Position numbers and translations under genes: made by a program. A DNA stretch of 64,000 bases from Leptolyngbyaceae cyanobacterium. GTDB lineage: Bacteria; Cyanobacteriota; Cyanobacteriia; Phormidesmidales; Phormidesmidaceae. Below the pieces are notes generated by a model. It ran no database searches and was not told the origin of the DNA. It saw only the letters and a program-made list of their open reading frames with translations. Of this stretch, positions 2 through 27,087 are shown one piece after another; positions within the stretch are counted from its first letter, which is position 1, and each line of letters starts with the position of its first letter. The stretch spans positions 160,001 to 224,000 of the forward strand of contig CBDHHL010000049.1 in NCBI GenBank assembly GCA_965263355.1, written 5' to 3'.

Positions 2-3000
2 GTGCCGCCAGAGCGTTGGGATATTGATGCCTACTATGACCCAGACCCCAATGCGCCAGGAAAGATGACCACTCGCTATGGTGGGTTCATTGAGGCGATT
101 GACCAGTTTGACGCCGCCTTCTTTGGCATTGCCCCCCGTGAAGTCATTGAACTGGACCCGCAACAGCGGTTTTTGCTGGAGATCAGCTGGCAGGCCTTGG
201 AAGATGCCAATATTGCGCCAGAGACATTGGTGGGTAGCCAAACTGGGGTCTATGTTGGCATCAGCACTAATGACTATAGCCAGTTGATTGCCCGAGGCGG
301 GGAACAGGCCATTGGTCAATACATGGGCACTGGCAATGCTGCTTCAGCCGCCGCCGGTCGACTCAGCTATGTGCTGGGCTTACAAGGACCGAGTTTGGCC
401 ATTGATACCGCCTGCAGTTCGTCTTTGGTGGCTCTCCATCAGGCCTCCCATGGATTGCTCAAGGGGGACTGTGAGTTGGCTTTAGTGGGTGGAGTCAACG
501 CCATCTTGAGTCCAGAGAATACTATTTACTTTAGTAAAGGTCGTTTTATGGCCCCCGATGGTCGCTGCAAAACCTTTGATGCCACTGCCGATGGCTTTGT
601 GCGCTCAGAAGGTTGTGGTGTGGTGATACTCAAGCGCTTATCAGAGGCAGAACGGGACGGTAACCACATTTACGGCGTCATTCGCGGGTCGGCGGTCAAC
701 CAGGATGGGGCTTCCGGGGGCTTAACCGTGCCCAATGGTCCGGCCCAGCAGCGTGTCATTGAACAAGCCCTGACGATAGCCAAGATTGAGCCAGAGTCGG
801 TCTCCTATGTCGAAGCCCACGGTACTGGAACCAGTCTGGGTGACCCGATAGAAATTCAAGCGCTCCAGCAGGTCCTAGGGCAGGCTCACAGCTCAGAACA
901 GCCCCTTTGGGTAGGTTCTGTCAAAACCAACATTGGTCATCTTGAAGCGGCGGCTGGCATCGCCAGTATCATCAAGGTGGCCTTGAGTTTCGATCACGGT
1001 GTGATTCCGGGACAGTTGCATTTCCACACACCTTCGCCGCGTATTCCCTGGGAAAATATCAATATTCAGGTGGTTGCCACCGCTCAGGGATGGCCAAGCC
1101 GTCGCAGAATTGCTGGGGTCAGTGGTTTTGCTTTCCAGGGCACCAATGCCCATTTGGTCTTAGAAGGCTATGGGCCATCCCAAGTGGTTGATGCAACACC
1201 AACAGAACAGAAAAATGACAGTTCTGCTGAGCCATCTCTCATGCTGTTGCCGCTCAGTGGCAAGAGTGAGGCAGCGGTGCAAGCCTTAGCTGCGGTCTAT
1301 GCTAATTGGCTGGAAATCCACGATGATATCCCCCTGAAGGATGTGTGCTTTACCGCTGGGGTGGGTCGTAATCATTTTGGCTATCGGACGACGGTCGTCG
1401 CTCAAACCCAAGCTCAGTTCCGACAGGGATTGCAGCAGGTGGCAGCGGGTACTGTAGATTTACAACGCATTCAACAGCAGCCACAAATCGCGGTTCTGTT
1501 CACCGGCCAGGGGGCACAGTACATAGACATGGCCCGTGAGCTTTATGAGACTCAGCCATCCTTTGGACAAACCTTAGACCAGTGCAGTGAGATTCTCAAT
1601 GCTTATCTGGAGAGCCCTTTGCTCGATGTGCTTTATCCAGATGAGAGAACAGAACAAGCCGATGACTTACTGAATCAAACAGCTTACACCCAACCAGCGT
1701 TGTTTGCCATTGAGTATTCGCTCTACCAACTCTGGCAATCCTGGGGTATCACTCCGTCTGTCGTTATGGGTCATAGTATCGGCGAGATAGTCGCTGCCTG
1801 TGTCGCAGGTATCTTTAGTCTAGAAGATGGATTGAAGCTCAGCGCCATGCGGGGCAAACTGATGGGGCGGTTACCCTCCGGGGGAGCGATGCTCTCGGTG
1901 ATGGCCTCCGTTAATCAGGTGAGAACTCTCATTGCTGAAAGAGGCAACATCACCATTGCCGCTATCAATGGCCCTGAGAGTACGGCCATTTCTGGAGAAG
2001 CATCAGTTGTTCGAGTCGTTTCTCAACAATTAGAGGCCCAGGGGATTAAGACTAAGCAACTGCAGGTTTCCCATGCTTTCCATTCGCTCTTGATGGAACC
2101 GATACTGGCCGAGTTTGAGCAGGTGGCTAGACAGATACGCTATTCACGCCCCAAACTCAAACTCATTTCCAATGTCACCGGACAGGTGGTTACCGAGGAA
2201 ATCGCCACCCCTGAGTATTGGTGTGAGCATATTCTAGCTCCAGTCAACTTTGTTGCTGGCATGGAGCGTCTGCAACAGGAAGAGATAGATATCTTCCTCG
2301 AATGTGGTCCTCAACCGATTCTGTTGGGCATGGGTCGGCAATGCCTCCCCGAGGATGAGGATAAAGTATTGCTGCCGTCTCTCAGACCTGGTCAAAATGA
2401 TTGGCAACAGATGCTTTCCAGTTTGAGCCAGCTCTATGTCCGTGGTGTGAGCATTGATTGGATGGGCTTTAACCAAGACTCTCCTCAACATTGCAAAGTC
2501 TCCCTACCCACCTATCCTTTCCAACGTCAACGCTATTGGATTGATGTTCAAGCCTCGACGAATGCACTGACGGCTAAAACGGCCCATGATGAAACTTTGC
2601 ATCCCTTGCTTGGCCATAAAGTCTCTCTGGCCGGTTCTCAGGTTTACTTTGAATCCGTTGTGAGCTCTCATCAACCGACCTATCTAGCCGAGCATCGCGT
2701 CTTCAACCGGACATTGTTCCCCACCACAGCCTACCTGGAAATGGGGCTGGCTGCTGGCCATCAAGTGTTTCCAGAACAACCCTTCACCCTTGAGCAATTC
2801 GAAATCGAACGGGGTCTGATTCTGCCTGAATCCAGTCCTACCCAAGTGCAAACCCTGATTACGCGTGATGCCCCAGATAGCTATCGCTTCGAAATCTATA
2901 GCTTATCCCCTGCCTCAGATGCTGGTACAGAATCTCAATGGCAACGCCATAGCCACGGCCTGATTCGGTTAGCGTCTCAAGTCGTGTCAATTCCCACCGT

Positions 3001-6000
3001 CTCGCTGAGCCAGTATCAAACCGAGTGTTCACATCGCTGTGAGGTCGCCGCCCATTACCGTCGTTTCTGCCAGCAACAGATTGACTACGGCGATAGTTTC
3101 CAGGGTATTCAGCAGCTGTGGCAAGGCGATGGCAAAGCCCTGGCTCAACTACAACTGCCCATGGCCCTGGTGGGCGATAGTGCCGACTATGATATCCATC
3201 CAGCCCTTTTAGATGCAGCTCTGCAGGTTCTCTCTGCCCTCGATGCTGGAACCGAGACAACCACCACTTATCTGCCCGTTGCGATTGAGCGATTTGAGGT
3301 CTATCGCTGCCCTGGATTGAGCCTATGGGTACTCGGCCAATGGCAAACGACAGAACAATCTACTGGACTAAGTGCACAAGTCCAACTGCTGGATAAGACC
3401 GGTCAGCTGATTGCCCGCATCGATGGCCTGCATGTCAGGGCTGCTACTCCTGCCGCACTGCTAGGTCAACCCCGCAATTTGGACCCGCATCTCTACCAGG
3501 TTGACTGGCGGGTCCAATCTCGCTTCGGTCGCTTGACACCCCCAGACTTCTTGCTGTCGCCACCTGAACTCTCCACTACCTTAGCCCCTCAGGTGCAGAC
3601 CCTGTTGTTAGATAATCCCACCCTGCAACAGCATTATGCCACCCTGTTACCCTCGCTAGAACAGGTCAGTGTAGACTTCATCGTGAAGGCTTTCGGCCAA
3701 CTGGGCTGGGCCTATCAACCGGGTGAACAGTTGCAACTGGAGAAGATTGCTCAACGCCTGGGCATCGTACCCCAACATCATCGCTTGCTGGCTCGCTTGC
3801 TGGAGATTCTCTCAGATGTAAAAATCCTCACCCCTCAGCAAGACTCCTGGCAGGTGCTACAAGCGTTACCCGCGACTGAGGCCATCACCCCTCCAACTCC
3901 ATTAGTGGCAGCGTCCGCCGAATGGCTGCTGCTGGAGCGCTGTGGCAGCCAGCTAGCAGCGGTCTTACGAGGGGCTATCGACCCTGTACAGCTGGTGTTC
4001 CCATCGGGTGACTTGAGCAATGCCACTCGACTTTATCAAGACTCACCCGCCGCTCACAGCTTTAATCGCCTGGTGCAGCAGGTTGTTACAACGGCTGTAA
4101 CCCATGCTCCGGCTACTCGAGGCCTGCGTATCCTTGAAATTGGTGCCGGTACCGGTGGAACGACCAGTACCCTACTGCCTCACTTACCGACTGCACAAAC
4201 TCGCTATTGCTTCACCGACATTGGTGCGCTCTTCACCCAGAAAGCCCAGGAACGCTTTGGCCATGACTATCCCTTTGTCAGCTATCAAACTCTTGATATC
4301 GAACAAGACCCGGCTGAGCAGGGCTTTGCAGAGCAGCAACAGGATATTGTGATTGCAGCCAATGTGTTGCATGCCACCTGTGACCTGAAGCAAACCTTGA
4401 GCCATGTGCGACAGTTGCTGGCACCGGGAGGGATGCTGGTACTGCGGGAGGGAACGGCTCGTCAACGCTGGGTAGATTTGATTTTTGGTCTACTAGATGG
4501 CTGGTGGCGATTTAGCGATCGCAACCTACGCCCCGATTATCCCCTGCTCAATTGCACCCAGTGGCAACAGCTCTTAATGGAAACGGGGTTTGAGTCAGTC
4601 ACAGTCCTACCGGATGAGAGTGCTGGAGATGATCTGGGCCAAGCGGTAATTGTTGCCAAAACCAGTGCTCAAACAAGTACAGACTTATCCAAAACTGATA
4701 AATCTGTGATTAAGCCTGCTAAGGGTTGGTTACTCTTAGCCGATCAGCAAGGGATAGCACAACAGCTGGTGCAGCGATTGGCAGCCCAAGGAGAGGCTTG
4801 CACTGTGGTACAGCAGGTACTGCAAGATGTCGCAGGATACCAGCACCTGTTAACCCAGCTACAGACACCAGAAACGGAATTGCAAGGGGTGATTCATTGT
4901 TGGGGGCTAGATGTGCCTGATAGTCAGACAATGGATGCCCCAGACTTAGCAGCAGCCTCTCAGTTAGGCTGTGGTACCCTATTGCCCTTAGTACAGGTGC
5001 TGGTCCAGCAAAAAGCGATCGCAACACCCAGACTCTGGATTGTCACTCGTGGGGCTCAGCCAGTGGGTGCATCCCCTGAGAATTTATCGGGGGTGAGTCA
5101 GGCCTCAATGTGGGGCATGGGCAAAGTAATTGGCCTGGAGCATCCGGAACTCTCCTGCACCCATATTGACCTGGATGGGAATGCGACCATTGCAGCCCAA
5201 GCCGAGAGTCTCTGGGCTGAGATCTGGTCTCAAGACAAGGAAGACCAGGTGGCGCTGCGACAAGATCAACGCTTTGTTGCCAGACTGGCTAAAAATGAGC
5301 AGTTGACAATGGCTGACAACGAAGCTGCGATGCCCCGACCAGAGGGTACCTATCTGATTACTGGAGGCCTGGGTGGCTTGGGTCTATTGGTGGCCGATTG
5401 GTTTATTGACCATCAGGTTAAACATCTGGTTCTGACCAATCGACGCGAACCCAGCGAATCGGTCCAGGCCCAGCTCCAGAAATTGAGGGAGAAAGGGGCT
5501 CAGGTCACCGTTGCCCAGGCCGATGTCACCGATGCAGTCGTAATGGCTACCGTCATTGACAACATCCGAAAATCGGGTTTTCCGCTCAAGGGCATCATCC
5601 ATGCCGCTGGAGTGCTCGACGACGGCACCCTATTGCAACAAAGCTGGCCTAAGTTTGAGGCGGTGCTCGGCCCAAAGGTACAAGGAGCCTGGAATCTGCA
5701 TCAGCTGACCCAAACAGAGTCAATTGACTTCTTTATCTCGTTCTCTTCAGCTGCTGCATTACTCGGCTCTCCCGGTCAAGCCAATCATTCAGCCGCCAAT
5801 GCCTTTCTCGATGGTCTGGCGCACTACCGACGGTCCCTAGGCTTAGCCGGTCAGAGTTTTCAGCTAGGAGCCGTTACCCGCATAGGAGAAGCGGCTGAGC
5901 GGGGGGCTGATGTTAGGGCACAAAAACAGGGAATGGGGGTGATTGAGCCTCAACAGGTATTAACCATCCTGGAGCGATTGTTACGCCAACCTCAAGTCAC

Positions 6001-6574
6001 TCAGGTTGGTCTTGTCCCCATTGATTGGAAATTAGCGCAGCTACCTGTCCAGTGGCATCGTTGGCCCTACTTATCAGATTGGACAAAGTTGAGTCAAAGC
6101 AACGCCGTTGACCAGACATCAGCAGTCATCAAGCAACTGCAATCAACGCCTGTCCAAGAACAAAAGGTACTTTTAGTTGCTTTTATCCGTCAGCAAGTGG
6201 CCCAAGTACTGGGCCTGAAGGATGCTCAACAGTTAGACATCTATCAGTCTCTCTTTCATATCGGTCTGGACTCTTTGATGGCGGTGGAACTAAGAAGCCA
6301 ATTACAAAACCAATTGAACCTATCGTTAAGCTCAACCCTGTTGTTTAACTACCCCACCATTGATGCATTAACAAACTACATTCTGAGTGAAAAATTATCG
6401 ACTACATCACAAAGCTCAGAAAGTGATGCATTCAACAACAGCTCCAGGACAAATTTACAGGCTGAGGAAAGTCTAAAACAATCTCGTTCAGATGCGCTAG
6501 ACGGGCTTTCAGAGGATGAACTAGCGGATCTACTCAGCAAAAAGATTCATCAACGTAGAGGAAATAACAAATGA
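2..6574 (+). CDS. Type I modular PKS, 5'-partial: KS-AT-DH-cMT-KR-ACP
   Basis: KS motifs DTACSSS, HGTGT and NIGHLE. AT GHSIG and HAFH (malonyl-type). DH HRVFNRTLFP and HPALLD. SAM-binding [22 protein letters not shown] and AGVLDDG. ACP GLDSL. C-terminal docking helix (LSEDELADLL). The ORF starts inside the KS at the window edge. Confidence 0.97.
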   Translation: MPPERWDIDAYYDPDPNAPGKMTTRYGGFIEAIDQFDAAFFGIAPREVIELDPQQRFLLEISWQALEDANIAPETLVGSQTGVYVGISTNDYSQLIARGGEQAIGQYMGTGNAASAAAGRLSYVLGLQGPSLAIDTACSSSLVALHQASHGLLKGDCELALVGGVNAILSPENTIYFSKGRFMAPDGRCKTFDATADGFVRSEGCGVVILKRLSEAERDGNHIYGVIRGSAVNQDGASGGLTVPNGPAQQRVIEQALTIAKIEPESVSYVEAHGTGTSLGDPIEIQALQQVLGQAHSSEQPLWVGSVKTNIGHLEAAAGIASIIKVALSFDHGVIPGQLHFHTPSPRIPWENINIQVVATAQGWPSRRRIAGVSGFAFQGTNAHLVLEGYGPSQVVDATPTEQKNDSSAEPSLMLLPLSGKSEAAVQALAAVYANWLEIHDDIPLKDVCFTAGVGRNHFGYRTTVVAQTQAQFRQGLQQVAAGTVDLQRIQQQPQIAVLFTGQGAQYIDMARELYETQPSFGQTLDQCSEILNAYLESPLLDVLYPDERTEQADDLLNQTAYTQPALFAIEYSLYQLWQSWGITPSVVMGHSIGEIVAACVAGIFSLEDGLKLSAMRGKLMGRLPSGGAMLSVMASVNQVRTLIAERGNITIAAINGPESTAISGEASVVRVVSQQLEAQGIKTKQLQVSHAFHSLLMEPILAEFEQVARQIRYSRPKLKLISNVTGQVVTEEIATPEYWCEHILAPVNFVAGMERLQQEEIDIFLECGPQPILLGMGRQCLPEDEDKVLLPSLRPGQNDWQQMLSSLSQLYVRGVSIDWMGFNQDSPQHCKVSLPTYPFQRQRYWIDVQASTNALTAKTAHDETLHPLLGHKVSLAGSQVYFESVVSSHQPTYLAEHRVFNRTLFPTTAYLEMGLAAGHQVFPEQPFTLEQFEIERGLILPESSPTQVQTLITRDAPDSYRFEIYSLSPASDAGTESQWQRHSHGLIRLASQVVSIPTVSLSQYQTECSHRCEVAAHYRRFCQQQIDYGDSFQGIQQLWQGDGKALAQLQLPMALVGDSADYDIHPALLDAALQVLSALDAGTETTTTYLPVAIERFEVYRCPGLSLWVLGQWQTTEQSTGLSAQVQLLDKTGQLIARIDGLHVRAATPAALLGQPRNLDPHLYQVDWRVQSRFGRLTPPDFLLSPPELSTTLAPQVQTLLLDNPTLQQHYATLLPSLEQVSVDFIVKAFGQLGWAYQPGEQLQLEKIAQRLGIVPQHHRLLARLLEILSDVKILTPQQDSWQVLQALPATEAITPPTPLVAASAEWLLLERCGSQLAAVLRGAIDPVQLVFPSGDLSNATRLYQDSPAAHSFNRLVQQVVTTAVTHAPATRGLRILEIGAGTGGTTSTLLPHLPTAQTRYCFTDIGALFTQKAQERFGHDYPFVSYQTLDIEQDPAEQGFAEQQQDIVIAANVLHATCDLKQTLSHVRQLLAPGGMLVLREGTARQRWVDLIFGLLDGWWRFSDRNLRPDYPLLNCTQWQQLLMETGFESVTVLPDESAGDDLGQAVIVAKTSAQTSTDLSKTDKSVIKPAKGWLLLADQQGIAQQLVQRLAAQGEACTVVQQVLQDVAGYQHLLTQLQTPETELQGVIHCWGLDVPDSQTMDAPDLAAASQLGCGTLLPLVQVLVQQKAIATPRLWIVTRGAQPVGASPENLSGVSQASMWGMGKVIGLEHPELSCTHIDLDGNATIAAQAESLWAEIWSQDKEDQVALRQDQRFVARLAKNEQLTMADNEAAMPRPEGTYLITGGLGGLGLLVADWFIDHQVKHLVLTNRREPSESVQAQLQKLREKGAQVTVAQADVTDAVVMATVIDNIRKSGFPLKGIIHAAGVLDDGTLLQQSWPKFEAVLGPKVQGAWNLHQLTQTESIDFFISFSSAAALLGSPGQANHSAANAFLDGLAHYRRSLGLAGQSFQLGAVTRIGEAAERGADVRAQKQGMGVIEPQQVLTILERLLRQPQVTQVGLVPIDWKLAQLPVQWHRWPYLSDWTKLSQSNAVDQTSAVIKQLQSTPVQEQKVLLVAFIRQQVAQVLGLKDAQQLDIYQSLFHIGLDSLMAVELRSQLQNQLNLSLSSTLLFNYPTIDALTNYILSEKLSTTSQSSESDAFNNSSRTNLQAEESLKQSRSDALDGLSEDELADLLSKKIHQRRGNNK

Positions 6575-9500
6575 TGGATATTTCTACTAATCGCGATTAT
6601 CGTCCTCTCTTGAAAGAGGCTCTGCTAGAGATTGAAGCACTCCAGTCGGAACTAAAAGCTGTTCAGCACACCCAAACCGAACCTTTAGCCATTATCGGCA
6701 TGGGGTGTCGCTTCCCTGGTGGTGGTAATAATCCAGAAGCCTTCTGGCAACTGCTGAAAAACGGTTCTAATCTTTGTGTTGACATTCCGGCGTCGCGTTG
6801 GGAAATTGACGCGTTCTATGACCCTGACCCAGCAGCGCCCGGTAAGATTTACACTCGCATGGGCCATTTCCTCAACGTTCCCATTGACAGATTTGATCCT
6901 CAGTTCTTTGGGTTGTCTCCCCGCGAAGCCAGGAGCCTGGATCCCCAGCAACGATTGCTCCTGGAAGTGTGTTGGGAAAGTCTGGAACATGCAGGCCTGG
7001 ATGCCACCGGTCTCCTCGCTTCGAAAACGGGTGTCTTTGTCGGTTTGATGAATGTTGAATATCCGAGGCTGGCGTTTCCCTCCTACGAGGCCATTGATAT
7101 GCATTCGGCCTCGGGAAATGCACCCAGTACGGCGGCGGGTCGTATTGCTTACACCTTTGGTTTTCAAGGACCTACCCTGGCCATTGATACCGCTTGCTCA
7201 TCATCGCTTGTGGCTGTGCATATGGCCTGTCAGAGTCTGCGGTTGGGTGAATGCGATATGGCGTTGGCCTGTGGCACCAATTTGATGTTGGGTCCTGAAA
7301 TGTATATCGGCGAATGTCGCAGTCAGATGCTGTCGACGGACGGCTTGTGTAAGACCTTTGATATTGCCGCCGATGGTTTTGGTCGTGGAGAAGGGTGTGG
7401 GGTGGTTGTGCTCAAACGACTCTCTGATGCCCAGCGCGATCGCGATACTATCCTAGCTTTGATCCGGGGCTCAGCGGTGAATCAAGATGGGCGTAGTGGC
7501 GGGTTAACGGTACCCAATGGCTTGGCTCAAGAGCAGGTGATTGGCGCTGCGCTCAACAATGGCCAGGTTGAGCCCCATCAATTGCAGTATGTCGAAGCCC
7601 ATGGCACCGGAACGTCTCTAGGAGACCCGATTGAAATTACGGCCCTGGGCAATGTGTTTGGTCAGAGTCATTCCCAAGAGCAGCCTTTGATGGTGGGATC
7701 AGTCAAGACCAATATTGGTCATACCGAAGCGACGGCGGGGATTGCAGGCTTGATTAAGTTGGTGTTGCAGTTGCAGCACGATGAGATCGCACCGCACTTA
7801 AATTTGAGTACCTCCAATCCCTACATTGATTGGGAGAAAGCACCCGTCACAATTCCCACAACACTGACCCCATGGCCTCGGAGGCAGACACCGCGATTGG
7901 CGGGGGTGAGTTCCTTTGGGTTTAGTGGCACCAATGCCCATGTGATTGTTGAAGAGGCACCGATTGCTGTACCCACTCAGCCAGATGTAAGTCCAGAGTC
8001 ACCATGGCAGATATTAACCCTATCGGCCAAAGAACAAACAGCCCTGCAGCAGCTGGCTAAGCAGTATGAGAGCTATTTAGAGACAATGCCAGCCGATGAC
8101 CTGGCGGATGTGTGCTTTAGTACTCGGGTCGGTCGAGCCCATTTTGAGAAAAGATTGGCCTTAGTGGGTCAAGATAAAGGTGATTTTTTAGCTCAACTCA
8201 GAGGCTGGTCATCTGAAGAACAATCTAGTACAGGGACTGGGAAAAAAGGCAAAACCGCGGTTCTGTTCACAGGACAGGGGTCCCAGTATGTGGATATGGG
8301 GCGTCAATTATACGAGACTCAACCACTGTTCCGGCAGACCCTCGACCACTGTAACACCATTCTCCAAGCCTACCTAGATCTAGATATTCTCAATATCCTC
8401 TACCCAGATACCTCAGAAACAGGGCAGGCACAAGACCAGCCCCTACAGTCTGCTTCCCCCTCACCCCTCGACCAAACCACATACACCCAGCCAGCATTAT
8501 TTGTCATTGAGTATGCACTCTATAAACTCTGGCAATCTTGGGGGATCACACCGTCTGTGGTGATGGGCCATAGCATCGGTGTGATAGTGGCCGCCTGTGT
8601 TGCTGATGTCTTTAGCCTGGAAGATGGACTAAAGCTGAGTGCGATGCGGGGAAAACTGATGGGGCAGTTACCCTCTGGGGGAGCGATGCTCTCGGTAATG
8701 GCCTCCGTTGATCAGTTGGGAACTCTCATTGCCGAAAGAGGCAACGTCACCATAGCCGCGATCAACGGTCCTGAGAGTACGGTTATTTCTGGAGAACAAT
8801 CCGCTGTTCGAGCCGTTGGGCAACAATTAGCAGCTCAGGGGATTAAGACCAAGCAGCTGCAGGTTTCCCATGCCTTCCATTCACCTTTGATGAAACCGAT
8901 GCTGGCCGAGTTTGAACAGGTGGCCAAACAGATTAACTATGCTCCCCCCAAACTCAAACTAATCTCCAATGTCACCGGACAGATTGTTACCGAAGAAGTA
9001 ACCACCCCTGAGTATTGGTGTGATCATATTCTGGCCCCAGTCAACTTTGCCGCTGGCATGGACAGACTACAGCAAGAGGAGATAGACGTCTTCCTCGAAT
9101 GTGGGCCTCAACCGATTCTGTTGGGGATGGGCCGTCAATGTTTGCCTGAGGATGAAGAGAACGCCTGGCTACCCTCCCTAAGAGTTGGGCAAGATGATTG
9201 GAAACAGATGCTCTCTAGTCTGAGGCAGCTCTATATCCGCGGGGTAGCCATTGATTGGAGAGGCTTTGATAAGGACTATCCCCAACGCCGCAAAGTCTCC
9301 CTACCCACCTATCCCTTCCAACGTCAACGCTATTGGATTGATGTTCCTCCTCAACATCGAATGCTGCCTGCTCATGCACTTGTGGGCAGCAAATTAGAGC
9401 TGGCTTCTACCGGACAAACTGTTTACCACCAAATCATTAATCTGGCCCAACAACCTTGGATTGGTGACCACCGGGTGTATGACACCGTCGTCATTCCAGG

Positions 9501-12147
9501 CGTCAGCTACATCGCCATGACCCTGGCAACTGTTGAGCTGCCCGCCACGGTTGACGCTGTTAGTTTCCTCGAACCCCTATTCCTGGCAACGCCCAAGGGT
9601 GAACGTGAAACTGAATTGATAATAGGGCCTGTTGCAGGAGAGGACACTCGTCGGGTCGAGGTCTTTAGTCGTGATGTCGCTAACCAAGATGAGTGGCGAC
9701 ATCATGCCAATCTGACTGTACAGAATACTCCACAACCATTAGCCCCTCTGAGTATCAATATTGCTAGTCTAAAAGAACAACTAGACCCGATTGCTGCCGA
9801 TACCCTGAATGAATTCTATGAGGGTATTTCAGTTACTTATGGTCCCATGCTATCAGCGGTTCAACAGGCCTGGGTCGGTGATGGGGTTGCCCTGTCGGAA
9901 ATCGTCGTGCCCGAGGCACTGGTTTCCCAGTTGTCTGATGAACCCATTCATCCTGTCTTGCTTGATGCCTGCACCCGACTAGCCGCAGATCTATTCGACG
10001 TTGATGATGAACCTGGGGTGTTTTGGGCTCCCTGGCAAGTGGAAAGAGTGACTCTCATGCGTCCGGCTCCTCGACACTTCTATACCTATGTGCATCAACC
10101 CACACGCATTAATGAACAATTACAGACGCGTGCCCATAACATTCATCTGCTTGATGAGGCTGGTCAGACATTTGGATATATCGATGGCTTTACCATCAAG
10201 CGGGCCCCACGGGAGCGCTTCTTAAAGTATTTGCAAGCCGATACCTATCAATGGCTCTATCAACTGCAATGGAAAGGATCAGTGCTGCCGCCAACGACAA
10301 CGCTACCTGCTTCAGGAACCTGGTTATTGTTAGTTCCAACAAAAGCATGGGCCGAACTGCTTAGAGATATGCTTGCTCAACAGCAACAATCCTGTGTAGT
10401 AGTCTCCATCGGCGAAACATTCCAGCAGTTGGATGAATATCACTATCAAGTCTGTCCTACCCAAGAAAATACCTTTGAAAAACTTTTGCAACAGCTGCAA
10501 GAGAATAACATTACGCTAAAGGGCATCGTCCATCTATGGAGCCTGACTAGCGACCTTGAGAACTTAACTGCCAGCTTGAAGATAACCTGTGGCAGTACAC
10601 TACATCTGCTGCAAAGTTTACTATCTCGGTCACTATCCCCTGCGCTCTGGCTGGTTACCCAGGGCAGCCAACATTTGGGACGAGAGCAAGAGGCTCAAAT
10701 CGAGCAAACGCCGCTTTGGGGCCTCGGTCGCGTAATTGCGCTAGAACATCCTGAGGTGCACTGCCACTTGCTCGATTTGGATGCTGCCTCTCCAATGGCA
10801 GAAGCGGTGTCAATTGTGGTTCAGGAACTCTTGAATTCTGACACAGAAAATCTGATTGCTTATCATCAGACTCAACGCCATGTGGCTCGCCTCCACCCCT
10901 ATTCCACCAATGCAGACGCACTGCCTCCAAGTAATGAAGCTCTCGTCCAAGCAGATGCCAGCTACTTAATTGCCGGCGGCTTGGGTGCTCTAGGTCTGCA
11001 GGTTGCCCAATGGCTTGGGCAATTGGGGGCAACCTCGCTGGTGCTGATGGGAAGACGCCCGCCCTCAGAGAGTGCAGCCTCTATCATCAATGTGCTCAGG
11101 CAAGCTGGCGTGCATGTTTCGGTGGTGCAGGCAGATGTGGCGAATGCGGCAGATGTGGCCACGATTCTGAGTGAGATTGACACTCAGCTACCCCCCTTAA
11201 AAGGCATTATTCATGCCGCTGGGGTAATTGCCGATGGCCTGCTACAAAATCAGAGCTGGTCCCAATTTGAACTCGTTATGGCGGCCAAAGTGTTAGGTAG
11301 TTGGCATCTGCACCAGTTGACTCAGGATAAACCGTTAGACTTTTTCGTCTGCTTTTCGTCAGCGGCTTCTCTAATTGGTTCCTCGGGTCAAGGCAATTAT
11401 GCGGCAGCCAATGCCTTTATGGATGGCTTAGCCCATCATCGACGTAGCCAGGGTCTACCAGGATTGAGCATCAATTGGGGTCCCTGGGCAGGAGGTGGCA
11501 TGGCCGCTCAGCTGAGCCATCAACATCTAAGACGGTTTGAGCAGGCCGGATTCCAACCGCTTGATGTTGAGGTCGGTCTTTCAGTGTTACAGCAGTGTCT
11601 TCAGCTGGGGATGCCTCAAGTGGGTGTATTGCCGATCAATTGGTCAAAGTGGTCAGCCCAAGCCACCGCCGCGACGCCGCTGCTCAAAACAGTGCTGCCT
11701 GAGAGTGTCCAACCGTCTCAGGCAGGATGGTTGTTGCAACAGCTAGAAACGACTCCGATGGCACAGCGTCGGACAGTTTTGATGGCTCAGGTGCGGTTAC
11801 AGGTGGCTCAGGTGCTGGGGATTTCTGATTCAACTATCCTGGATGCCCATACAGGCTTATTTGACCTGGGAATAGATTCCCTGATGGTTACCGAACTAAG
11901 AAATCGATTACAGAGTTGTTTAGGGTGTCGATTGTCGGCGACAGATTTGTTTAATTACAACACCCTAGATGACTTAGTGAACTATTTGGTTCACGAGGTT
12001 TTTCAATGGGATGAGATTACCTTAGAGAACCCAATTCAGACAAAAGACGAGGTACTCAGGAATGGCATTACTGAAATTGAGATTATGGATCTCGATGAGC
12101 TAAATGCCTGTATTTCTGAGGAATTAGAAGAATTAGAAACTTTATAA
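6571..12147 (+). CDS. Type I modular PKS: KS-AT-DH-KR-ACP
   Basis: N-terminal docking helix (LLKEALLEIEALQSEL), DTACSSS, HGTGT, GHSIG, HAFH, DH HRVYDTVVIP/HPVLLD, KR GGLGALG and [17 protein letters not shown]. Overlaps the upstream stop (ATGA). Confidence 0.97.
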   Translation: MMDISTNRDYRPLLKEALLEIEALQSELKAVQHTQTEPLAIIGMGCRFPGGGNNPEAFWQLLKNGSNLCVDIPASRWEIDAFYDPDPAAPGKIYTRMGHFLNVPIDRFDPQFFGLSPREARSLDPQQRLLLEVCWESLEHAGLDATGLLASKTGVFVGLMNVEYPRLAFPSYEAIDMHSASGNAPSTAAGRIAYTFGFQGPTLAIDTACSSSLVAVHMACQSLRLGECDMALACGTNLMLGPEMYIGECRSQMLSTDGLCKTFDIAADGFGRGEGCGVVVLKRLSDAQRDRDTILALIRGSAVNQDGRSGGLTVPNGLAQEQVIGAALNNGQVEPHQLQYVEAHGTGTSLGDPIEITALGNVFGQSHSQEQPLMVGSVKTNIGHTEATAGIAGLIKLVLQLQHDEIAPHLNLSTSNPYIDWEKAPVTIPTTLTPWPRRQTPRLAGVSSFGFSGTNAHVIVEEAPIAVPTQPDVSPESPWQILTLSAKEQTALQQLAKQYESYLETMPADDLADVCFSTRVGRAHFEKRLALVGQDKGDFLAQLRGWSSEEQSSTGTGKKGKTAVLFTGQGSQYVDMGRQLYETQPLFRQTLDHCNTILQAYLDLDILNILYPDTSETGQAQDQPLQSASPSPLDQTTYTQPALFVIEYALYKLWQSWGITPSVVMGHSIGVIVAACVADVFSLEDGLKLSAMRGKLMGQLPSGGAMLSVMASVDQLGTLIAERGNVTIAAINGPESTVISGEQSAVRAVGQQLAAQGIKTKQLQVSHAFHSPLMKPMLAEFEQVAKQINYAPPKLKLISNVTGQIVTEEVTTPEYWCDHILAPVNFAAGMDRLQQEEIDVFLECGPQPILLGMGRQCLPEDEENAWLPSLRVGQDDWKQMLSSLRQLYIRGVAIDWRGFDKDYPQRRKVSLPTYPFQRQRYWIDVPPQHRMLPAHALVGSKLELASTGQTVYHQIINLAQQPWIGDHRVYDTVVIPGVSYIAMTLATVELPATVDAVSFLEPLFLATPKGERETELIIGPVAGEDTRRVEVFSRDVANQDEWRHHANLTVQNTPQPLAPLSINIASLKEQLDPIAADTLNEFYEGISVTYGPMLSAVQQAWVGDGVALSEIVVPEALVSQLSDEPIHPVLLDACTRLAADLFDVDDEPGVFWAPWQVERVTLMRPAPRHFYTYVHQPTRINEQLQTRAHNIHLLDEAGQTFGYIDGFTIKRAPRERFLKYLQADTYQWLYQLQWKGSVLPPTTTLPASGTWLLLVPTKAWAELLRDMLAQQQQSCVVVSIGETFQQLDEYHYQVCPTQENTFEKLLQQLQENNITLKGIVHLWSLTSDLENLTASLKITCGSTLHLLQSLLSRSLSPALWLVTQGSQHLGREQEAQIEQTPLWGLGRVIALEHPEVHCHLLDLDAASPMAEAVSIVVQELLNSDTENLIAYHQTQRHVARLHPYSTNADALPPSNEALVQADASYLIAGGLGALGLQVAQWLGQLGATSLVLMGRRPPSESAASIINVLRQAGVHVSVVQADVANAADVATILSEIDTQLPPLKGIIHAAGVIADGLLQNQSWSQFELVMAAKVLGSWHLHQLTQDKPLDFFVCFSSAASLIGSSGQGNYAAANAFMDGLAHHRRSQGLPGLSINWGPWAGGGMAAQLSHQHLRRFEQAGFQPLDVEVGLSVLQQCLQLGMPQVGVLPINWSKWSAQATAATPLLKTVLPESVQPSQAGWLLQQLETTPMAQRRTVLMAQVRLQVAQVLGISDSTILDAHTGLFDLGIDSLMVTELRNRLQSCLGCRLSATDLFNYNTLDDLVNYLVHEVFQWDEITLENPIQTKDEVLRNGITEIEIMDLDELNACISEELEELETL

Positions 12148-12159: not shown

Positions 12160-15100
12160 ATGAACAAGATTTCTGCTCAATCATCTGAACAACTTCAATC
12201 TGCTCAGAATGTCCTGTTGGCGTTGCGTAATGCTAAAAACAAACTTAAAGCTATTAAACAAGCTAAGACAGAACCGATTGCCATCATTGGCTTAGGGTGT
12301 CGTTTCCCAAAATCCAATAGTCCAGCTGATTTCTGGCGGTTACTGGAACAGGGCATGGATGCTGTGACTGAGGTGCCTGCAGAGCGTTGGGACATTGACC
12401 AATATTATGACCCCGACCCAGAGGTTCTGGGCAAAATGCATACCCGCCATGCCAGCTTCCTGTCCGACGTAGATCAATTTGATGCTGACTTTTTCAAAAT
12501 CTCTCCTCGCGAAGCCAAGAGTCTCGATCCTCAACATCGATTGTTGTTGGAAGTGTGTTGGGAAAGTCTCGAAGATGCAGGGGTGTCGCCACTGGCGTTG
12601 AAAGGTACTCAAACCAGTGTCTTTATTGGCATGATGACCCATGACTATGGACACCTTGCGGCCCAGACTGCAGATATCCATACAGGTTTTGGCAATGGGG
12701 CTCCCCTGGCCGCTGGTCGGATTGCCTATACCTTAGGTCTTAATGGACCTACATTGACGGTCGAAACAGCCTGTTCTTCTTCTCTAGTTGCTTGTCATTT
12801 GGCGTGTCAGAGTTTGCGTAACCAAGAGAGTAATCTGGCCTTGGTCGGTGGTATCAACCTGATGTTGACACCCGAGATGAGTATCCTTGAGGCTCAAGCT
12901 CAGATGAATTCACCCGATGGTCGGTGCAAAACCTTTGATGAGGGTGCTGATGGCTATGGGCGCGGTGAGGGCTGTGGCATTGTGGTGCTCAAGCGATTGA
13001 GCGATGCCCAAGCCGATGGTGACCGAATTTTAGGGTTGATTCGGGGGTCTGCCATTAATCATGATGGCCCCAGTAGTAGCTTGACAGTGCCTAATGGATT
13101 AGCGCAAAAAACATTGATCGAGCAAGCCTTAGCCAATGCCAATGTGCAGGCAGCTCAGGTGGACTATGTGGAATGTCATGGCACTGGAACAGCCTTGGGA
13201 GATCCCATTGAGGTCGATGCGTTAGTCAAGGCTTACGGTCAGCATCGCGCTTTGAATCATCCGATCATGCTTGGTTCTGTTAAGACGAACATTGGTCATA
13301 CCGAAGGGGCTGCCGGTATTGCGGGATTAATCAAGGTAATTTTGTCTTTACAACACGAGAAGATTCCACCGCATCTGCATCTGAAGCAGCCCAATCGACG
13401 CATTGCCTGGGATGACATACCTGTGGTTGTGCCGACGGCAATCCAACCCTGGCAACGGGGAGAGAAGACTAGACTGGCTGGGGTGAGTTCCTTTGGCCTC
13501 AGTGGCACCAATGCCCATGTGATTGTCGAAGAAGCGCCTTTATCCCGACCGATGCCAGCCCCCCTGGAGCGTCCCTGGCATGTGCTGACCCTATCCGCCA
13601 AAACAGAGGATGCGTTGCAAGCACTGGTTGAGCAGTATGAGCGATACTTCAACGCTCACCCAGAGTTAACACTTGCAGACATTGGCTATACGGTTAATAC
13701 CGGTCGAGCACACTTTCAAAATCGTTTAGCGATTGCGGGAACTTCTTTAGCTGAGGTGTCTGAGAAACTGAGACAACTTAGAGAAGCAAAACAGACACAG
13801 GGAACCAACCTGGGGCAATTTGATCACCGGCAGGCTGCACAGATAGCTGTTCTGTTTACGGGACAAGGTTCGCAGTATGTAGGCATGGCCCGAGAACTTT
13901 ATAAGACGCAACCGACCTTCAGACAGACGCTTGAGCAGTGCGATGAGATTCTTAATGCTTATCTCGATCTGCCCTTGCTCGATATTCTCTATCCAGATGA
14001 GAGAACAGAACAAGCCGATGCTCTATTGCATCAGACGGCCTATACCCAACCGGCTCTATTTGCCATTGAGTATGCACTCTATCAACTCTGGCAATCTTGG
14101 GGCATTGCACCTTCTGTGGTGATGGGGCATAGCATTGGTGAGATAGTAGCGGCTTGTGTTGCAGGTGTCTTCTCTCTCGAAGATGGCTTGAAGCTGAGTG
14201 CGATGCGGGGCCAGCTGATGCAACAAATACCCGCTGGTGGCGCAATGCTATCGGTGATGGCCTCCGTTGAGCAGGTTAGAACTATCATTGCTGATTCAGA
14301 AAGAAACAACGTTGAGATCGCGGCTATCAATGGCCCTGAGAGTACGGTTATTTCAGGTGAAGCATCTGCCGTTCAATCGATTGCTCAACACCTCGAAGCT
14401 CAGGGAATTAAAACCAAACAACTTCAAGTCTCCCATGCTTTCCATTCACCGTTGATGGCACCGATGCTGGCTGAGTTTGAGCAGGTGGCTCAGCAGATCA
14501 GCTATTCACTGCCTCAGCTCAAACTGATTTCCAATGTCACCGGACAGGTGGTGACTGAGCAAGTGGCGACGCCTGAGTATTGGTGTGAGCATATTCTGGC
14601 ACCAGTGAACTTTTCTGCTGGCATGGAGTGTCTGCAGCATGAAGAGATTAATATCTTGCTTGAATGTGGGCCTCAACCGATTCTGCTAGGAATGGGACGA
14701 CAGTGTCTACCAGCGGATGAGGAGAACGCTTGGTTACCGTCTCTTAGACCGGATCAGAGCAACTGGCAGCAGATGCTCTCCAGCTTAGGTCAGCTCTATA
14801 TCCGTGGGGTGAACATTGATTGGGAGGGCTTTGAGACGGACTATCCCCAACGCCGTAAAGTCTCCCTACCCACCTATCCCTTCCAGCGTCAACGTTACTG
14901 GGTGGAAACTCAACCCAATCCAACTCGAATGATGGCCGCCAGAGATCGCATCCATCCACTGCTGGGTCAACGATTACAATTAGCAGGCCGCTGCCAAGAC
15001 ATTTTCTTTGAAACCAGCCTGAGTGCGGCGAGTCCGGTCTACTTGTCAGACCATCGTGTCTTGGACCAGGTGGTTCTCCCAGGAGCCGCTTATGTAGAGA

Positions 15101-18100
15101 TGGTTCTGGCGGCTGGAGCCCAAATTTTTCAATCCCACTGCCTGGTATTAGAACAGGTCTTTATGGCTCACCCCCTGCTCCTATCAGCCACTCAATCTAC
15201 CACAGTACAGGTTGTCCTGAGTCCAACCGAAAAAGGCGTTTACACATTTGAGGTGGCCAGCTTGAAAACGGCTTCTGACGCTGACAGTTGGCAAGTCCAT
15301 GTCTCGGGGAAGCTACGCGCAGGAGGCACCCGACCGGACAAAGTGATGTTAGAGCAATGGCATGACCGAGGGGCACCGCTGCCATTGGAGCCATTTTACC
15401 GACAGTCTCAAGCGCAGGGGCTGGCGTTTGGCGAGTGCTTCCAATCTTTAACACAAGCCTGGACTGAGTCTGGCGAAGGGTATGCCCAGGTGAAATTGCC
15501 CCTAGCTATTGGGGACGCTGATAACTATCATCTGCATCCCATTCTGCTGGATGGCGGCTTTCAATTAACCGGGGCCATGCTGGCAGTCGGTAACCAAACC
15601 CAGTCAAACTCGCTGTATTTGCCCGTGGCCATTGAGCGTCTGGAGGTCTATGGCCAGGCGGGACCGCAACTATGGGTGCAAGCAAACGTACGTGATGCGG
15701 ATACTGGGAACAGTTTGAGCAGTGACTTTCGGTTGGTAGACCCAACGGGGAACGTTGTTGCTCAAGTGGAGGGTTTCACCCTTCGCCAGGCTACTCGTCA
15801 AGGACTGCAGCGAGCTTTGGAACCAGATTTGAGTGATTGGTTCTACACGCTAGACTGGCGGCTGCACCCCCTGGAGAGATCGCACCCACTACCATCTGGA
15901 GGTCGCTGGCTGGTATTCACCTCAGGCGGAGACTTGGGTGAGCAATTACTTCAACAGCTTCAGCAGCAAGGTCATACCTGCATCCAAGTTGCTGTGGGTT
16001 CCAGCTATCAACGCTTGAGCGACGCATACTACCAGGTGAATCCTCTAGAACCCGATGATTTTCGGCAACTGCTGCAAGCGTGTTGTCACGAGCAGCCGCA
16101 AGGGATTATCCACCTGTGGTCCCTGGAAAGTGCCGCAGTGGCAGAGTTGGATACGGATGGCTTGTACCAGTCACAGGTACTCAGCTGCGGCAGTGTGCTG
16201 CATCTGTTGCAGGGATTGTCGTCGGCTCAGGCCGTGCCCCTGTACTTGGTGACCCAAGGGGCACAATCAATCCGCTCTCATCCAACAGAGGTACAGGTGC
16301 AGCAAGCTCCCTTGTGGGGCTTGGGGCGAGTCATTGCGATGGAATATCCGGCGATTAAGTGTCAGCGCTTAGACTTAGACCCCAATGCTTCTGTAGAGAC
16401 GAATGTGGGTGCGATCGCAGCTGAACTGCATAGCAGCCATGACGAAGATCAAGTCGCCTATCGCCACAATCAGCGCTTTGTGGCCCGCCTGCTGCGACAG
16501 CGAGAAGCCGCTCAAAGAGCGGGGCAACGTGCCATCCCTCAAGGGCAACCCTATCAGTTAAAGCTGTCAGCCTATGGCTCCCCCGACCACCTCAGTCTGC
16601 AACCCATGACCCGTCGTGCTCCTGCCGCTGGGGAAGTGGAAGTGCAGATGCAAGCGGTCGGTTTGAACTTTCGCGATGTCCTGAACGCCCTCGGCGTGCT
16701 CAAGGATTACTATGCCGAGCACTTTGGGATTACCGACCCGCAGCAGTTAACCTTTGGATTTGAAGGAGTGGGGCGCATTGTGGCGCTGGGAGCAGAGGTT
16801 ACACATCTGCAGATCGGCGATGAGGTGATAGTGACGATGATACCGGATGGCTTCAGCAGCCATGTCACCACAAAAGCCGCCTGGGTGTTCAAAAAGCCAC
16901 CACAGCTTAGTGCCACTGCCGCTGCCACGCTTCCCTTGGTATTTTTAACTGCTCAGTACGGGTTGAGTCAGTTGGCCCAGCTGCAGCCAGGGGAGCGGGT
17001 GCTGATCCATGCAGCGGCAGGTGGCGTGGGCCAGGCCGCCGTACAAATTGCCCAACGGCTGGGGGCTGAGATTTACGCCACAGCCAGTCCAGGAAAATGG
17101 GCATTTCTTCGCTCCCAGGGCATTCAACACATCTTCAACTCACGCAGCCTGACGTTTGCCGACCAGATAAAGCAAGCGACTGGCGGCGTGGGAGTGGATG
17201 TCGTCCTCAACAGTTTGAATGGCGAACATATTCCCAAGAGCCTGGATGTTTTAGCTCCAGGCGGGCGATTTATTGAAATCGGCAAGGCTGGCATCTGGAG
17301 TACCGCACAAGTGCGCCAGCAGCGGCCTGATGTGGCCTATTTCCCCTTTGATCTAGGTGAAGTGGGTCAAGCCAATCCGCCGTTGATGCGAGCAATATTT
17401 GAGCAATTTCAGCAGGCGGTTACAGAAGGTGACCTAAAATCACTACGCCAGCAGGTATATCCGATTACCCAAGTGGTCGAGGCGTTCCGGTTGATGCAAC
17501 GGGGTCAGCACCTAGGTAAGGTGGTGGTGACGCTACCAGATGTTGAGGCCGCTGAAACCGGTGTCCAAAGTGAAGGCAGTTACCTGATCACGGGTGGATT
17601 GGGAGCCCTGGGGCTACAGTTGGCACAAGCATTAGCAGACCAGGGAGCCCGTTCCTTGGTGCTGATGGGACGTCGTTCGCCCTCCGCTCAAGCCCAAACT
17701 GTGATTACGGCACTGCAGACCCAGGGGATTAAGGTGAGTGTGGAGCTTGCGGATGTAGCCGATTTTCCAGCCGTCGCTCAGATGATGGCGAAAATTGAGG
17801 CCGAACTCCCTCCGTTACGGGGCGTGGTCCATGCCGCTGGAGTCCTGGAGGATGGTCTCCTACAGCAGATGAGCTGGCCCAGTTTTACCAAGGTGATGGC
17901 CCCCAAGGTGCTAGGTGCTTGGAATTTACATCAGCTGACACAGCAGCAGCCATTAGATTTCTTTGTCTGCTTCTCTTCAATCGCAGCCCTGATGGGAAAT
18001 GCCACTCAGGGAAACTATGCGGCCGCGAATACGTTTCTCGATGCCCTGGCTCATCATCGTCGAGTCAGGGGATTGCCCGGCTTAAGTATCAATTGGGGGC

Positions 18101-19398
18101 CTTGGGCAGCGGACGGCATGGCAGCCTGCTTAGGCACACAGTATCAAAGTCATCTGCAAGCCTTGGGCATTGCATCCATGACTCCCCAACAGGGCCTTAA
18201 ATCATTCACTCAGTTGTTGTCAGAACCCGACACGCAAGTTGGTGTATTCTCGATTAATTGGTCTAATTTTTTGAAACACCTACCCGGTAGAGTAAATCCT
18301 CCGTTTTTAGAAGAATTTGCTTCTAATGTAGTCGTTGAGACTAAAAATGATCGCCTCATTGAGCAATTGAGAACAGCTCCAGCAGATGAAAAAGAGAATA
18401 TCCTAACCCCTTATCTGCAAAATAAGATTGCGCGGGTTTTAGGGATGACAGCGTCCCTAATAGATGTTGAAGAACCACTTAATCAGATGGGACTTGATTC
18501 TCTGATGACGATCGAGGTACGTGCCCAAATTCAAAGAGAGTTGACCGTGGATTTGCCCATCGAAAAGCTCATAGAGGGGCCTAGTATTACTCAAGTCGCT
18601 ATATTACTGCTTGAGCAATTGGCGTTGACCGATGTTAGTGCATCAACCCAGCCAGATTTAACGGTTCACCCTGAAACTCACGAGGCTGCAGCGACTGAAC
18701 CTACCGAAGACCTTTTGACTGGAGAGCCTAAAGCGGTTCTACCAGGCCCTAGAAATTTAATTGCCCGTGTTATCCTCTGGATTTTTGGCTTTCTGACCCG
18801 ATTCATCTGGTCCATTGAAGTCGTTGGCCAGGAACACCTTTCACCCGAACCGCCTTTTATTCTTTGTGCTAACCATGAATCGCATTTTGATTCGCTATGG
18901 ATCACGTCGTACTTATCACCACAGCTGCGATATCAATTCTGTACTTTGGCGAAGCAAGAGCATTTTGAAAAACGAATACCGAGACTGTTGATGAGCCTTC
19001 TTGGTAGCATACCTGTGGACCGTCAAGGAGATTCGCTGCCAGCGCTCCGAACAGCAGCCCAAGGATTACTGGCGAAACGACCTTTATTTATTCACCCAGA
19101 AGGGACGCGTACGCGAACCGGTGAACTTTTACCCTTTCGAAGGGGAGCTGCCAAATTAGCCATTGCCACTAGTTCACCGATAATTCCCGTAAGGATCATT
19201 GGGGCGTACGCAATCTTTCCGCCTGATCAGAAATGGCCTAGCTTGTTTGACTGGAAAAACTGGCGACGGCGGCAGCTGAAGATTGTTTTTGGGGCACCAA
19301 TTGAACCATCAAAGCAAGAAAGGGGGTTGCAGGCAGAAATTCTTTTGACTGAACAACTCCGCCAGGCCATCATTGCACTTCACTGTTCTGAGTGTTAA
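12160..19398 (+). CDS. Terminal type I PKS module: KS-AT-DH-ER-KR-ACP plus C-terminal PlsC/AGPAT-like acyltransferase
   Basis: [52 protein letters not shown] and [16 protein letters not shown]. Followed by NHESHFD (NHx4D) and HPEGTR..G.L.PF..G, the lysophospholipid acyltransferase motifs. No TE GxSxG domain after the ACP. Confidence 0.95.
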
Positions 19399-19537
19399 TT
19401 TTGTGCGAGAAGTAGAGCCTTGAAGAATTGCTACCGTTTTGTATTAGACGACAATTATTTTGGGCTCTTCTGAGCTTTTAGTGAGCTGTTAAAGCTTGGT
19501 GCTAGCAAGACCTAAAGCAGAGCGTAGTGGATGTTTT

Positions 19538-20590
19538 ATGAATAGCGCATCTCCATTGGAACGTCTACCTATGGTTCATTTGAGTACAGAAAAAATTCCG
19601 CAAGAACATCAGCTCGAAGTTTGGCAACAGACAGCCTCTCCTCTATTTGATGTGATTCCCATGAAGGATATGCGGTCTTTTTCGTGTTCAGTCACCAGTT
19701 ACTTGGTAGGGCAGTTGACCTTTAATCACACAACATTTGATCGAACACAATTTATTCGTACATCGCGACATCTTTCAATTCATGGGTCTGATTGTATTAC
19801 TCTCCAGTATTACTGTTCTGGGCAAATTCAGGGAAATCTGGAGAGTGGCGTTCAGTTACAGATGGCGAGCGATCGCATCTCAATTCATGATTTTGCCCAT
19901 CCCTACACTGGCATTGGTGAAACAAGTAACCAGTTTGCCATTGTCATTCCGCGCCATTTAATTACGGTTCATGACCAAATTTATAAAAATTATCCTGTGT
20001 TTTCTTGGTCTGTCAATTCGTCGGTTGGTCGCATCCTGACCCATGCATGGCTGACGATTTGGAAAAATCTCCCCGATATGTCTCAGGCAGATGCCTCAGC
20101 AATCGCACAGGGATTTATTGGCCTACTCAATGGCCTATTATCTAGCAAGCTGGATATGGCAACTCGTGCCCAGGTAGAACTGTCCACAATAGATGCGATG
20201 AAAGCCCATTTACAGGCTAATCTCCATCTAATTAATCTGGGAGTAGAAAGTCTGTGTGAGATATTTCACTGCTCACGTTCCACCGTTTATCGGTTATTTA
20301 AAGCTGAGGGGGGAGTCCAAGCCTATGTGCGAGAACAACGCTTGAAGTACTGCTATCAAGAACTGCAACAATTACCACCCTCTTCACGTAAAACGATTAG
20401 TGAAATTGCCGGAAAGTGGGGGTTTGCTGATGCAGCATCCTTTAGCCGTCTCTTTCGAAAACATTACGGCATATCGCCATCAGAGGTGAATGCCTCCCTG
20501 TCTGAAGCCATCGCTCCAGTGATGAAAACACAGGCAAGTTATTGGTCTGAAAGCGATCGTCTAAAACAGTGGTTAGAGAATTATTCATAA
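19538..20590 (+). CDS. AraC-family transcriptional regulator (FeaR-like N-terminal ligand domain)
   Basis: C-terminal double HTH (SRSTVYRLF ... ISEIAGKWGFADAASFSRLFRKHYGISPSE). ATG at 19538 preferred over TTG at 19496. Confidence 0.92.
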   Translation: MNSASPLERLPMVHLSTEKIPQEHQLEVWQQTASPLFDVIPMKDMRSFSCSVTSYLVGQLTFNHTTFDRTQFIRTSRHLSIHGSDCITLQYYCSGQIQGNLESGVQLQMASDRISIHDFAHPYTGIGETSNQFAIVIPRHLITVHDQIYKNYPVFSWSVNSSVGRILTHAWLTIWKNLPDMSQADASAIAQGFIGLLNGLLSSKLDMATRAQVELSTIDAMKAHLQANLHLINLGVESLCEIFHCSRSTVYRLFKAEGGVQAYVREQRLKYCYQELQQLPPSSRKTISEIAGKWGFADAASFSRLFRKHYGISPSEVNASLSEAIAPVMKTQASYWSESDRLKQWLENYS

Positions 20591-27073: not shown

Positions 27074-27087
27074 CATGCGGGTCTCGG

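Follow-up and report, generated by a model that had tools for sequence, protein, structure and literature searches.

The stretch of DNA analysed here (64 kb in full, hereafter the window) opens in the middle of a polyketide synthase (PKS) cluster, where three consecutive ORFs on the + strand encode one cis-AT module each. The features of the cluster end, with its downstream neighbour, are as follows.

2..6574, + strand: P0003, KS-AT-DH-cMT-KR-ACP (Pfam), the upstream module, truncated by the window edge
6571..12147, + strand: P0002, KS-AT-DH-KR-ACP (Pfam), the middle cis-AT module, with a 4-nt overlap with the P0003 stop
12160..19398, + strand: P0001, KS-AT-DH-ER-KR-ACP-PlsC (Pfam), the terminal PKS protein, 2412 aa in one uninterrupted frame
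18412..18600, + strand: last ACP (PF00550), aa 2085-2147, motif GLDSLM, with Ser2114 at nt 18499
18625..18741, + strand: acidic ACP-PlsC linker of ~39 aa, the least constrained part (dN/dS 0.50)
18742..19395, + strand: PlsC/AGPAT-type acyltransferase domain, ~aa 2195-2412 (Pfam, PDB sequence match, predicted model)
18757..18810, + strand: predicted amphipathic helix, aa 2200-2217 (hydrophobic moment 0.51, mean hydrophobicity 0.61)
18871..18891, + strand: NHx4D catalytic motif, NHESHFD from aa 2238 (His2239, Asp2244), intact
19096..19110, + strand: PEGTR motif, aa 2313-2317 (Arg2317), intact
19496..20590, + strand: AraC-family regulator (Pfam), the next gene downstream of P0001

P0001 forms the final module of a line with three or more cis-AT modules; its stop codon lies directly after the PlsC domain. 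The KS Cys/His/His, AT GHS and HAFH and ACP Ser residues are intact in all three window modules, and in P0001 the motifs of KS, AT (HAFH), DH, ER and KR are all intact; these are the successive KS-AT-(reductive)-ACP modules with preserved catalytic motifs that define a cis-AT modular type I PKS. All window ATs are of the HAFH (malonyl) type. Provided that every domain acts, the chain would carry R-CH=C(CH3)-CH=CH-CH2-CH2-CO- at its carboxyl end. This prediction is uncertain because the first KR, that of P0003 (aa 1915-1933), has His at the usual catalytic Tyr position (GQANHS), though a DH is present; the replacement occurs in 3 of the 54 such KR motifs compared. At 90% clustering P0002 falls together with proteins from Leptolyngbya sp. 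SIO3F4, a strain assigned to Leptothoe according to PMC8225149, and the window thus probably comes from a filamentous cyanobacterium of marine origin. A promoter and terminator scan 3' of P0001 gave counts close to the shuffled means.

The terminal PlsC domain

The first-pass annotation of this DNA had described a domain of ~215 aa after the last ACP, with NHx4D and PEGTR motifs, and this was borne out: the domain spans aa 2195-2412, and PF01553 matches aa 2219-2346 of P0001 (E 3.5e-24; 85.5 bits against a cut-off of 23). The AK motif (Lys2265) is likewise intact. The sole PDB sequence match of the domain is Thermotoga maritima PlsC (5KYM, E 2.1e-11), which is also the top fold match (TM 0.67, E 3.8e-10; ~20% identity in the structural alignment) of an AlphaFold model of the domain (pLDDT 84, pTM 0.84), followed by squash GPAT, PatA, human GPAT1 and LpxM. 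Counted along the sequence alignment, His2239, Asp2244, Lys2265 and Arg2317 pair with His84, Asp89, Lys105 and Arg159 of 5KYM. We take His84 and Asp89 to be the catalytic dyad of that enzyme, and Lys105 and Arg159 presumably bind the phosphate of lysophosphatidic acid (LPA), so that the equivalents of both putative phosphate-binding residues are present in P0001. The score, the NHx4D dyad with PEGxR and the predicted acyltransferase fold all place the domain in the PF01553 superfamily; it was not classed as an AGPAT proper because it scores below the cut-off of TIGR00530 (79.9 versus 102.95 bits). In the ESM Atlas the best match (0.90) lies with ACP-PlsC clusters with 145 shared features, which serves as a lead only.

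Among 13 PKS-fused copies compared, the motif His, Asp, Glu, Gly and Arg are present in 13/13 and the Lys in 12/13. Compared with its ortholog in genome G001, the PlsC domain has a dN/dS of 0.097 at a dS of 0.96, and the same comparison gave 0.070 for the ER, 0.088 for the KR and 0.50 for the linker. By this measure the domain is under purifying selection, and overall it looks alive. Its first helix (aa 2200-2217) is predicted to be amphipathic as well as hydrophobic, which fits an enzyme of the membrane surface, and in the predicted model it is likely a membrane anchor. These properties bear on the idea that the domain is a hydrolase that replaces a thioesterase (TE) and yields a free acid, or else a dead remnant. 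Such a role is in line with the report that ElbD, a protein of Myxococcus xanthus with the layout FAR-ACS-ACP-AGPAT, showed no detectable acyltransferase activity when assayed in isolation in vitro (PMC9131029). It is nevertheless very improbable here, given that the catalytic and putative phosphate-binding residues are all kept, that dN/dS is so low, and that the conserved amphipathic helix would be superfluous for plain hydrolysis.

A chance join or an assembly chimera was considered and rejected. Three other records carry a contiguous ACP-PlsC, making an artefact of assembly unlikely: P0004, with 92% identity to P0001 over 1521 aa; P0150, an ortholog fragment from Leptolyngbya sp. SIO3F4; and locus L001, which holds the 3' part of the ortholog of the window gene, with 83% identity in the PlsC domain. 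The ending is thus a genuine feature that is conserved and selected for.

The further claim that no TE, reductase or condensation (C) domain follows holds within the window: a Pfam scan that covered 27 of its 68 ORFs gave none of the three families. A six-frame tblastn of the whole stretch detected no TE, carnitine acyltransferase, C, FAAL or ACS, except for one weak C match that coincides with the ACP. Control loci were matched by the queries for TE, C, FAAL and ACS, while the carnitine acyltransferase query had no control locus. The usual PKS terminus (TE, reductase or condensation domain) was thus not found in the window, and the start of the cluster lies outside it. Likewise, no CdsA, PssA, Psd, desaturase or cyclopropane synthase was found in the 64 kb by six-frame tblastn with queries that matched their control loci.

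Recurrence and phylogeny of ACP-PlsC endings

With the ACP-PlsC region as query, 6 of 61 proteins of similar length contain PKS domains together with PF01553, namely P0004 (92% identical), P0005-P0007 (45%), P0008 (37%) and P0009; P0007 is from Candidatus Entotheonella factor, and in P0009 a condensation domain precedes PlsC. The longer relatives of the PlsC domain alone are mostly of the ligase-ACP-PlsC type, with an AMP-binding domain in 72/80, and 4/80 are KS-AT-ACP-PlsC proteins, those of Symploca among them. A profile search with the domain gave 314 representatives at E 1e-30 or better. The best 150 of these comprise 95 proteins with a ligase domain (4 of which also have a condensation domain), 51 short or partial proteins, P0150 being one, and 4 with a KS. 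One of these is P0177, a three-module PKS of 4519 aa that has no AT domains (trans-AT type) and ends in ACP-PlsC. The ending is also found on NRPS-type C-A-T-PlsC proteins (L040:6905-10660, L051:6884-10672, P0219, P0239, P0251), which carry the same PlsC subfamily and belong to uncultured Ruminococcus and its relatives among the clostridia of gut or rumen. Besides the close orthologs in cyanobacteria, the ending is thus shared by Entotheonella, by a trans-AT PKS and by proteins of the NRPS type.

In a tree of 28 rows, the PKS-fused copies are interspersed with fatty acid ligase-ACP-PlsC fusions: the window domain clusters with P0074, a FAAL-ACP-PlsC protein (93/98), and P0078 falls together with a different ligase fusion (100/99). 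A single origin of the PKS-PlsC fusions was rejected when 12 PKS-fused copies were held together (AU p=0.000114, in a test of 28 rows that was designed after quicker trees had been seen and from which P0009 was omitted as a very long branch). Because the PKS-fused copies fail this one-clade test, the PlsC domain has likely been exchanged repeatedly between ligase fusions and PKS ends, with either direction possible.

The subfamily is rare in cyanobacteria. It was found in 1/401 sampled cyanobacterial genomes (the genome at the centre of that sample), in 1/17 of another sample and in 0/172 of a third, a set that contained no known positive, and a housekeeping PlsC was rejected on these counts. 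Genomes G001, G002 (Symploca) and G003 (Entotheonella) hold 7, 5 and 7 PF01553 matches, respectively, so the fused copy is additional to the housekeeping ones. A plasmid search with the domain gave no match at E 1e-25, and a phage search gave 4 unannotated faecal records with 32-34% identity.

These data also bear on the suggestion that the PlsC domain, although active, rides along on ordinary acyl-ACP or acyl-CoA, the polyketide being released by an enzyme encoded elsewhere or upstream. The part of the cluster beyond the window could indeed encode another release enzyme, and in the nearest relatives PlsC sits behind a fatty acid ligase rather than a PKS, as the AMP-binding counts given above indicate. 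We consider this improbable, however, since PlsC is fused right behind the last ACP in several separate lineages (as the rejection of one origin implies), the three-module trans-AT protein P0177 has the same ending, no TE was found in the 64 kb, and the host genomes have several other PF01553 genes.

Gene neighbourhoods of relatives and sibling clusters

The neighbourhoods of 159 loci were compared, in 3 of which (L002, L006, L083) a KS and PlsC share the same ORF. CdsA, which consumes phosphatidic acid to form CDP-diacylglycerol, adjoins the domain in 7/159 loci, all of them among the 14 closest (L001-L008, L081-L086), while PssA lies beside it in 4 loci and Psd in 3; the queries were taken from L002, so diverged CdsA in far loci may have been missed, and several loci are short. 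The order in L002 (Symploca) is cyclopropane synthase, KS-AT-ACP-PlsC, CdsA, an unknown gene, PssA, Psd and an MFS protein. The Psd adjoining KS-AT-ACP-PlsC is the only Psd match in the Symploca genome (G002), and no Psd match was obtained in the G001 genome. To our knowledge, cyanobacteria normally lack phosphatidylethanolamine. A phosphatidylethanolamine-type island (PlsC fusion, CdsA, PssA, Psd, MFS) is complete in L002, L004 and L083 and partial in L003. L083 also has a desaturase and a FAAL, and in Entotheonella the gene order is oxidase, DUF1365, desaturase, cyclopropane synthase, FAAL and KS-AT-DH-ER-KR-ACP-PlsC. In L084 the PlsC fusion adjoins a DUF3419 gene, which we take to encode the betaine-lipid enzyme BtaA.

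This context carries over to the window only in part, because the KS-AT-ACP-PlsC proteins found beside the phospholipid genes are decayed: the AT serine motif is lost in P0072, P0073 and P0075, and the KS histidine in P0078. Judging from these motifs, such proteins may not extend chains and may only pass on a fatty acid. None of CdsA, PssA, Psd, cyclopropane synthase and desaturase is encoded in L001, the locus of the closest ortholog; downstream lie MFS, HlyD and AcrB-type exporters and another FAAL-PKS.

Other loci of the set show different associations. ACS-ACP-PlsC genes occur in PUFA-synthase-like clusters in L005 (Calothrix sp. PCC 7103), L007, L008, L010, L092, L094 and L111. In L005 the gene faces a PEP mutase, a TPP decarboxylase, an aminotransferase and a CDP-alcohol transferase, a gene set that suggests a phosphonolipid, and in L111 a KR-DH protein bears its own PF01553 domain. 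A phosphatidylserine decarboxylase-like gene is located in a PKS-NRPS cluster of Entotheonella (L167:8582-13534, G003), near polysaccharide-export-like genes.

Sibling clusters start with FAAL-ACP, which suggests a long fatty-acyl starter for the window cluster by analogy. On contig C98 of G001, modules match P0003 (KS-AT 80%), P0002 (67%) and P0001 (KS-AT 81%), and then the contig ends; G756 has similar modules, but these continue into a PKS-NRPS. The PlsC-bearing gene of G001 is split over two contigs with an exact 85-base overlap. With the P0001 KS, the KS of this gene shares no more than 59% identity, so the gene and C98 are not assignable to one cluster. Three runs against the G001 sibling cluster at 80% likeness yielded short pieces only and no FAAL link. 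A second acyl-transfer type of PKS ending is seen in the cyanobacterial genome G756, where a cis-AT KS-AT-DH-KR-ACP protein (L175:5673-12827, - strand) ends in a full choline/carnitine acyltransferase domain (PF00755, E 3e-137); this module is preceded by a FAAL-ACP gene and one further ORF.

Proposed release onto a lysoglycerolipid

We consider it probable that the PlsC domain releases the chain from the ACP onto LPA or a similar lysoglycerolipid, giving a polyketide-acylated glycerolipid. Modules upstream of the window, likely FAAL-primed as in the sibling clusters, would build a long acyl chain, to which the three malonyl modules would add -CH=C(CH3)-, -CH=CH- and -CH2-CH2- if every domain acts. 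By way of its amphipathic helix, the C-terminus of P0001 would attach to the membrane, where the free hydroxyl of the lysolipid, activated by the His-Asp dyad, would attack the ACP thioester. Further processing of the phosphatidic acid so formed would be left to the ordinary lipid enzymes of the host, as the cluster brings no lipid genes within the window. A glycerophospholipid acceptor is favoured because the closest relatives adjoin CdsA, PssA, Psd and, in one case, DUF3419. The suggestion of the first-pass annotation, that the polyketide is offloaded onto a glycerol(phosphate) or lysolipid, thereby gains support from the gene neighbours of relatives, from which we infer the acceptor of the window's own cluster by analogy. 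Weighing against a lysolipid acceptor are the absence of lipid genes from the window and L001, the TIGR00530 score, the use of the PlsC fold for other acceptors (GPAT, PatA, LpxM) and the in vitro result for ElbD.

Several of these points would also suit release onto an acceptor that is not a lysoglycerophospholipid. The chain might be esterified to glycerol 3-phosphate, a sugar lipid, lipid A or a small polyol, and the product might be exported. The fold matches to GPAT, PatA and LpxM, the lack of CdsA, PssA and Psd in the window and L001, the exporters adjoining the L001 gene and the missed AGPAT cut-off all point that way. Such an acceptor is unlikely, though, as the best match in both sequence and fold is the LPA acyltransferase 5KYM, the equivalents of its Lys105 and Arg159 are kept, and close relatives adjoin genes that consume phosphatidic acid.

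Among known systems, the precedent named by the first-pass annotation, the AGPAT of myxobacterial PUFA synthases, is confirmed by the literature: Pfa3 of Aetherobacter and Minicystis has a C-terminal AGPAT that is described as unique to those PUFA synthases (PMC4882568, PMC6163206). Transfer by this domain is hedged in the papers as 'presumably' (so in PMC6731297) or 'seems to', and it is stated in a figure legend of PMC10540379. Like P0001, Pfa3 carries a C-terminal PlsC/AGPAT domain on a PKS-type megasynthase without a TE, and according to these sources its proposed acceptor is 1-acylglycerol-3-phosphate. It differs in being part of an iterative PUFA synthase whose ACPs are on a separate subunit, Pfa2, whereas PlsC of P0001 comes after an ACP on the same protein, at the end of a cis-AT line that has several modules and includes a C-methyltransferase. 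The Pfa3 layout was not seen among the 61 matches to the ACP-PlsC region or the best 150 of the 314 profile matches. The window PKS also lacks the tandem ACPs, KS-CLF, FabA-like DH and separate ER of the Pfa type; it has one ACP per module, a PKS-type DH, an in-cis ER and no FabA match, and scores 477.5 with TIGR02813 against a cut-off of 1010.1.

In ElbD and the ligase-ACP-AGPAT proteins an AGPAT-like domain directly follows the ACP, a likeness that for ElbD is drawn from its description, and FAALs are found in the context of an LPLAT/AGPAT-like domain according to PMC12820801. Ligase-ACP-PlsC proteins are the nearest relatives of the window domain (95 of the best 150 matches). In these fusions, however, a ligase loads the ACP with an existing fatty acid, while the ACP of P0001 is loaded by polyketide extension, and no FAR or ACS is present in P0001 or the window. 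T. maritima PlsC, the best sequence and fold match, in which the NHx4D, AK and PEGTR residues align, differs in being a stand-alone housekeeping enzyme that uses free acyl-ACP or acyl-CoA. Aas is distinct too, since P0001 lacks a ligase domain and its PlsC domain alone reaches 36-69 bits, where the cut-offs for the whole protein are 886-1349. Other PKS products are known to be released by acyl transfer, as with LovD, mycobacterial PapA5 and a fungal PKS that ends in a carnitine acyltransferase domain. There, too, an external acceptor takes the chain from the ACP by transesterification, but these enzymes have other folds and acceptors and none is a glycerolipid acyltransferase. Judged by its domain content, the end of P0001 belongs to the PF01553 superfamily and to the cis-AT modular PKSs, and falls outside the Pfa, Aas and ElbD families.

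Taken by analogy, the domain most likely works like the Pfa3 AGPAT, but on a modular line and by repeated recruitment. An AGPAT-type ending is already known from Pfa3, and what appears to be new is its occurrence on a modular PKS. We found no report of a modular PKS with a PlsC/AGPAT ending in the literature searched, which was mostly outside subscription journals, and a term search of a 2025 FAAL review (PMC11837247) gave no mention of PlsC, glycerol or phospholipid. More tentatively, the ACP-coupled PlsC subfamily may be a mobile release cassette, taken up several times by cis-AT PKSs, trans-AT PKSs and NRPS-type proteins to load their products into membrane glycerolipids. Marine cyanobacteria, sponge symbionts and gut or rumen clostridia would then make overlooked polyketide-acyl (possibly aminoacyl-derived) phospholipids, which screens based on compound extraction would miss.

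Release chemistry decides the product of a PKS, and clusters without a thioesterase are often labelled incomplete. If PlsC is the release enzyme, it would represent an additional termination mode for modular PKSs, with the product expected in the lipid fraction, which natural-product screens seldom cover. In the literature cited here, the step by which a megasynthase ACP hands its chain straight to a lysolipid is described as presumed, and the ACP-PlsC didomain (~350 aa) would be simpler than Pfa3 or ElbD for its study. ACP-PlsC could also serve as a part that routes engineered polyketides into membranes.

Elsewhere in the window, positions 20796-32699 (+ strand) encode a subtilase, a beta-propeller protein and seven ORFs (111-589 aa) without a Pfam match, six of which also have no NCBIfam match; one ORF (31371-32699) has acidic tandem repeats of ~20 aa each. 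This region looks like an uncharacterised operon. Further downstream are a PTPA-CTERM sorting-domain protein (35784-36344, + strand) and, at 43504-55352, an adjoining set of a DUF928 protein, a CHASE2 histidine kinase and a two-partner-secretion/TPR/CHAT protein of 2660 aa.
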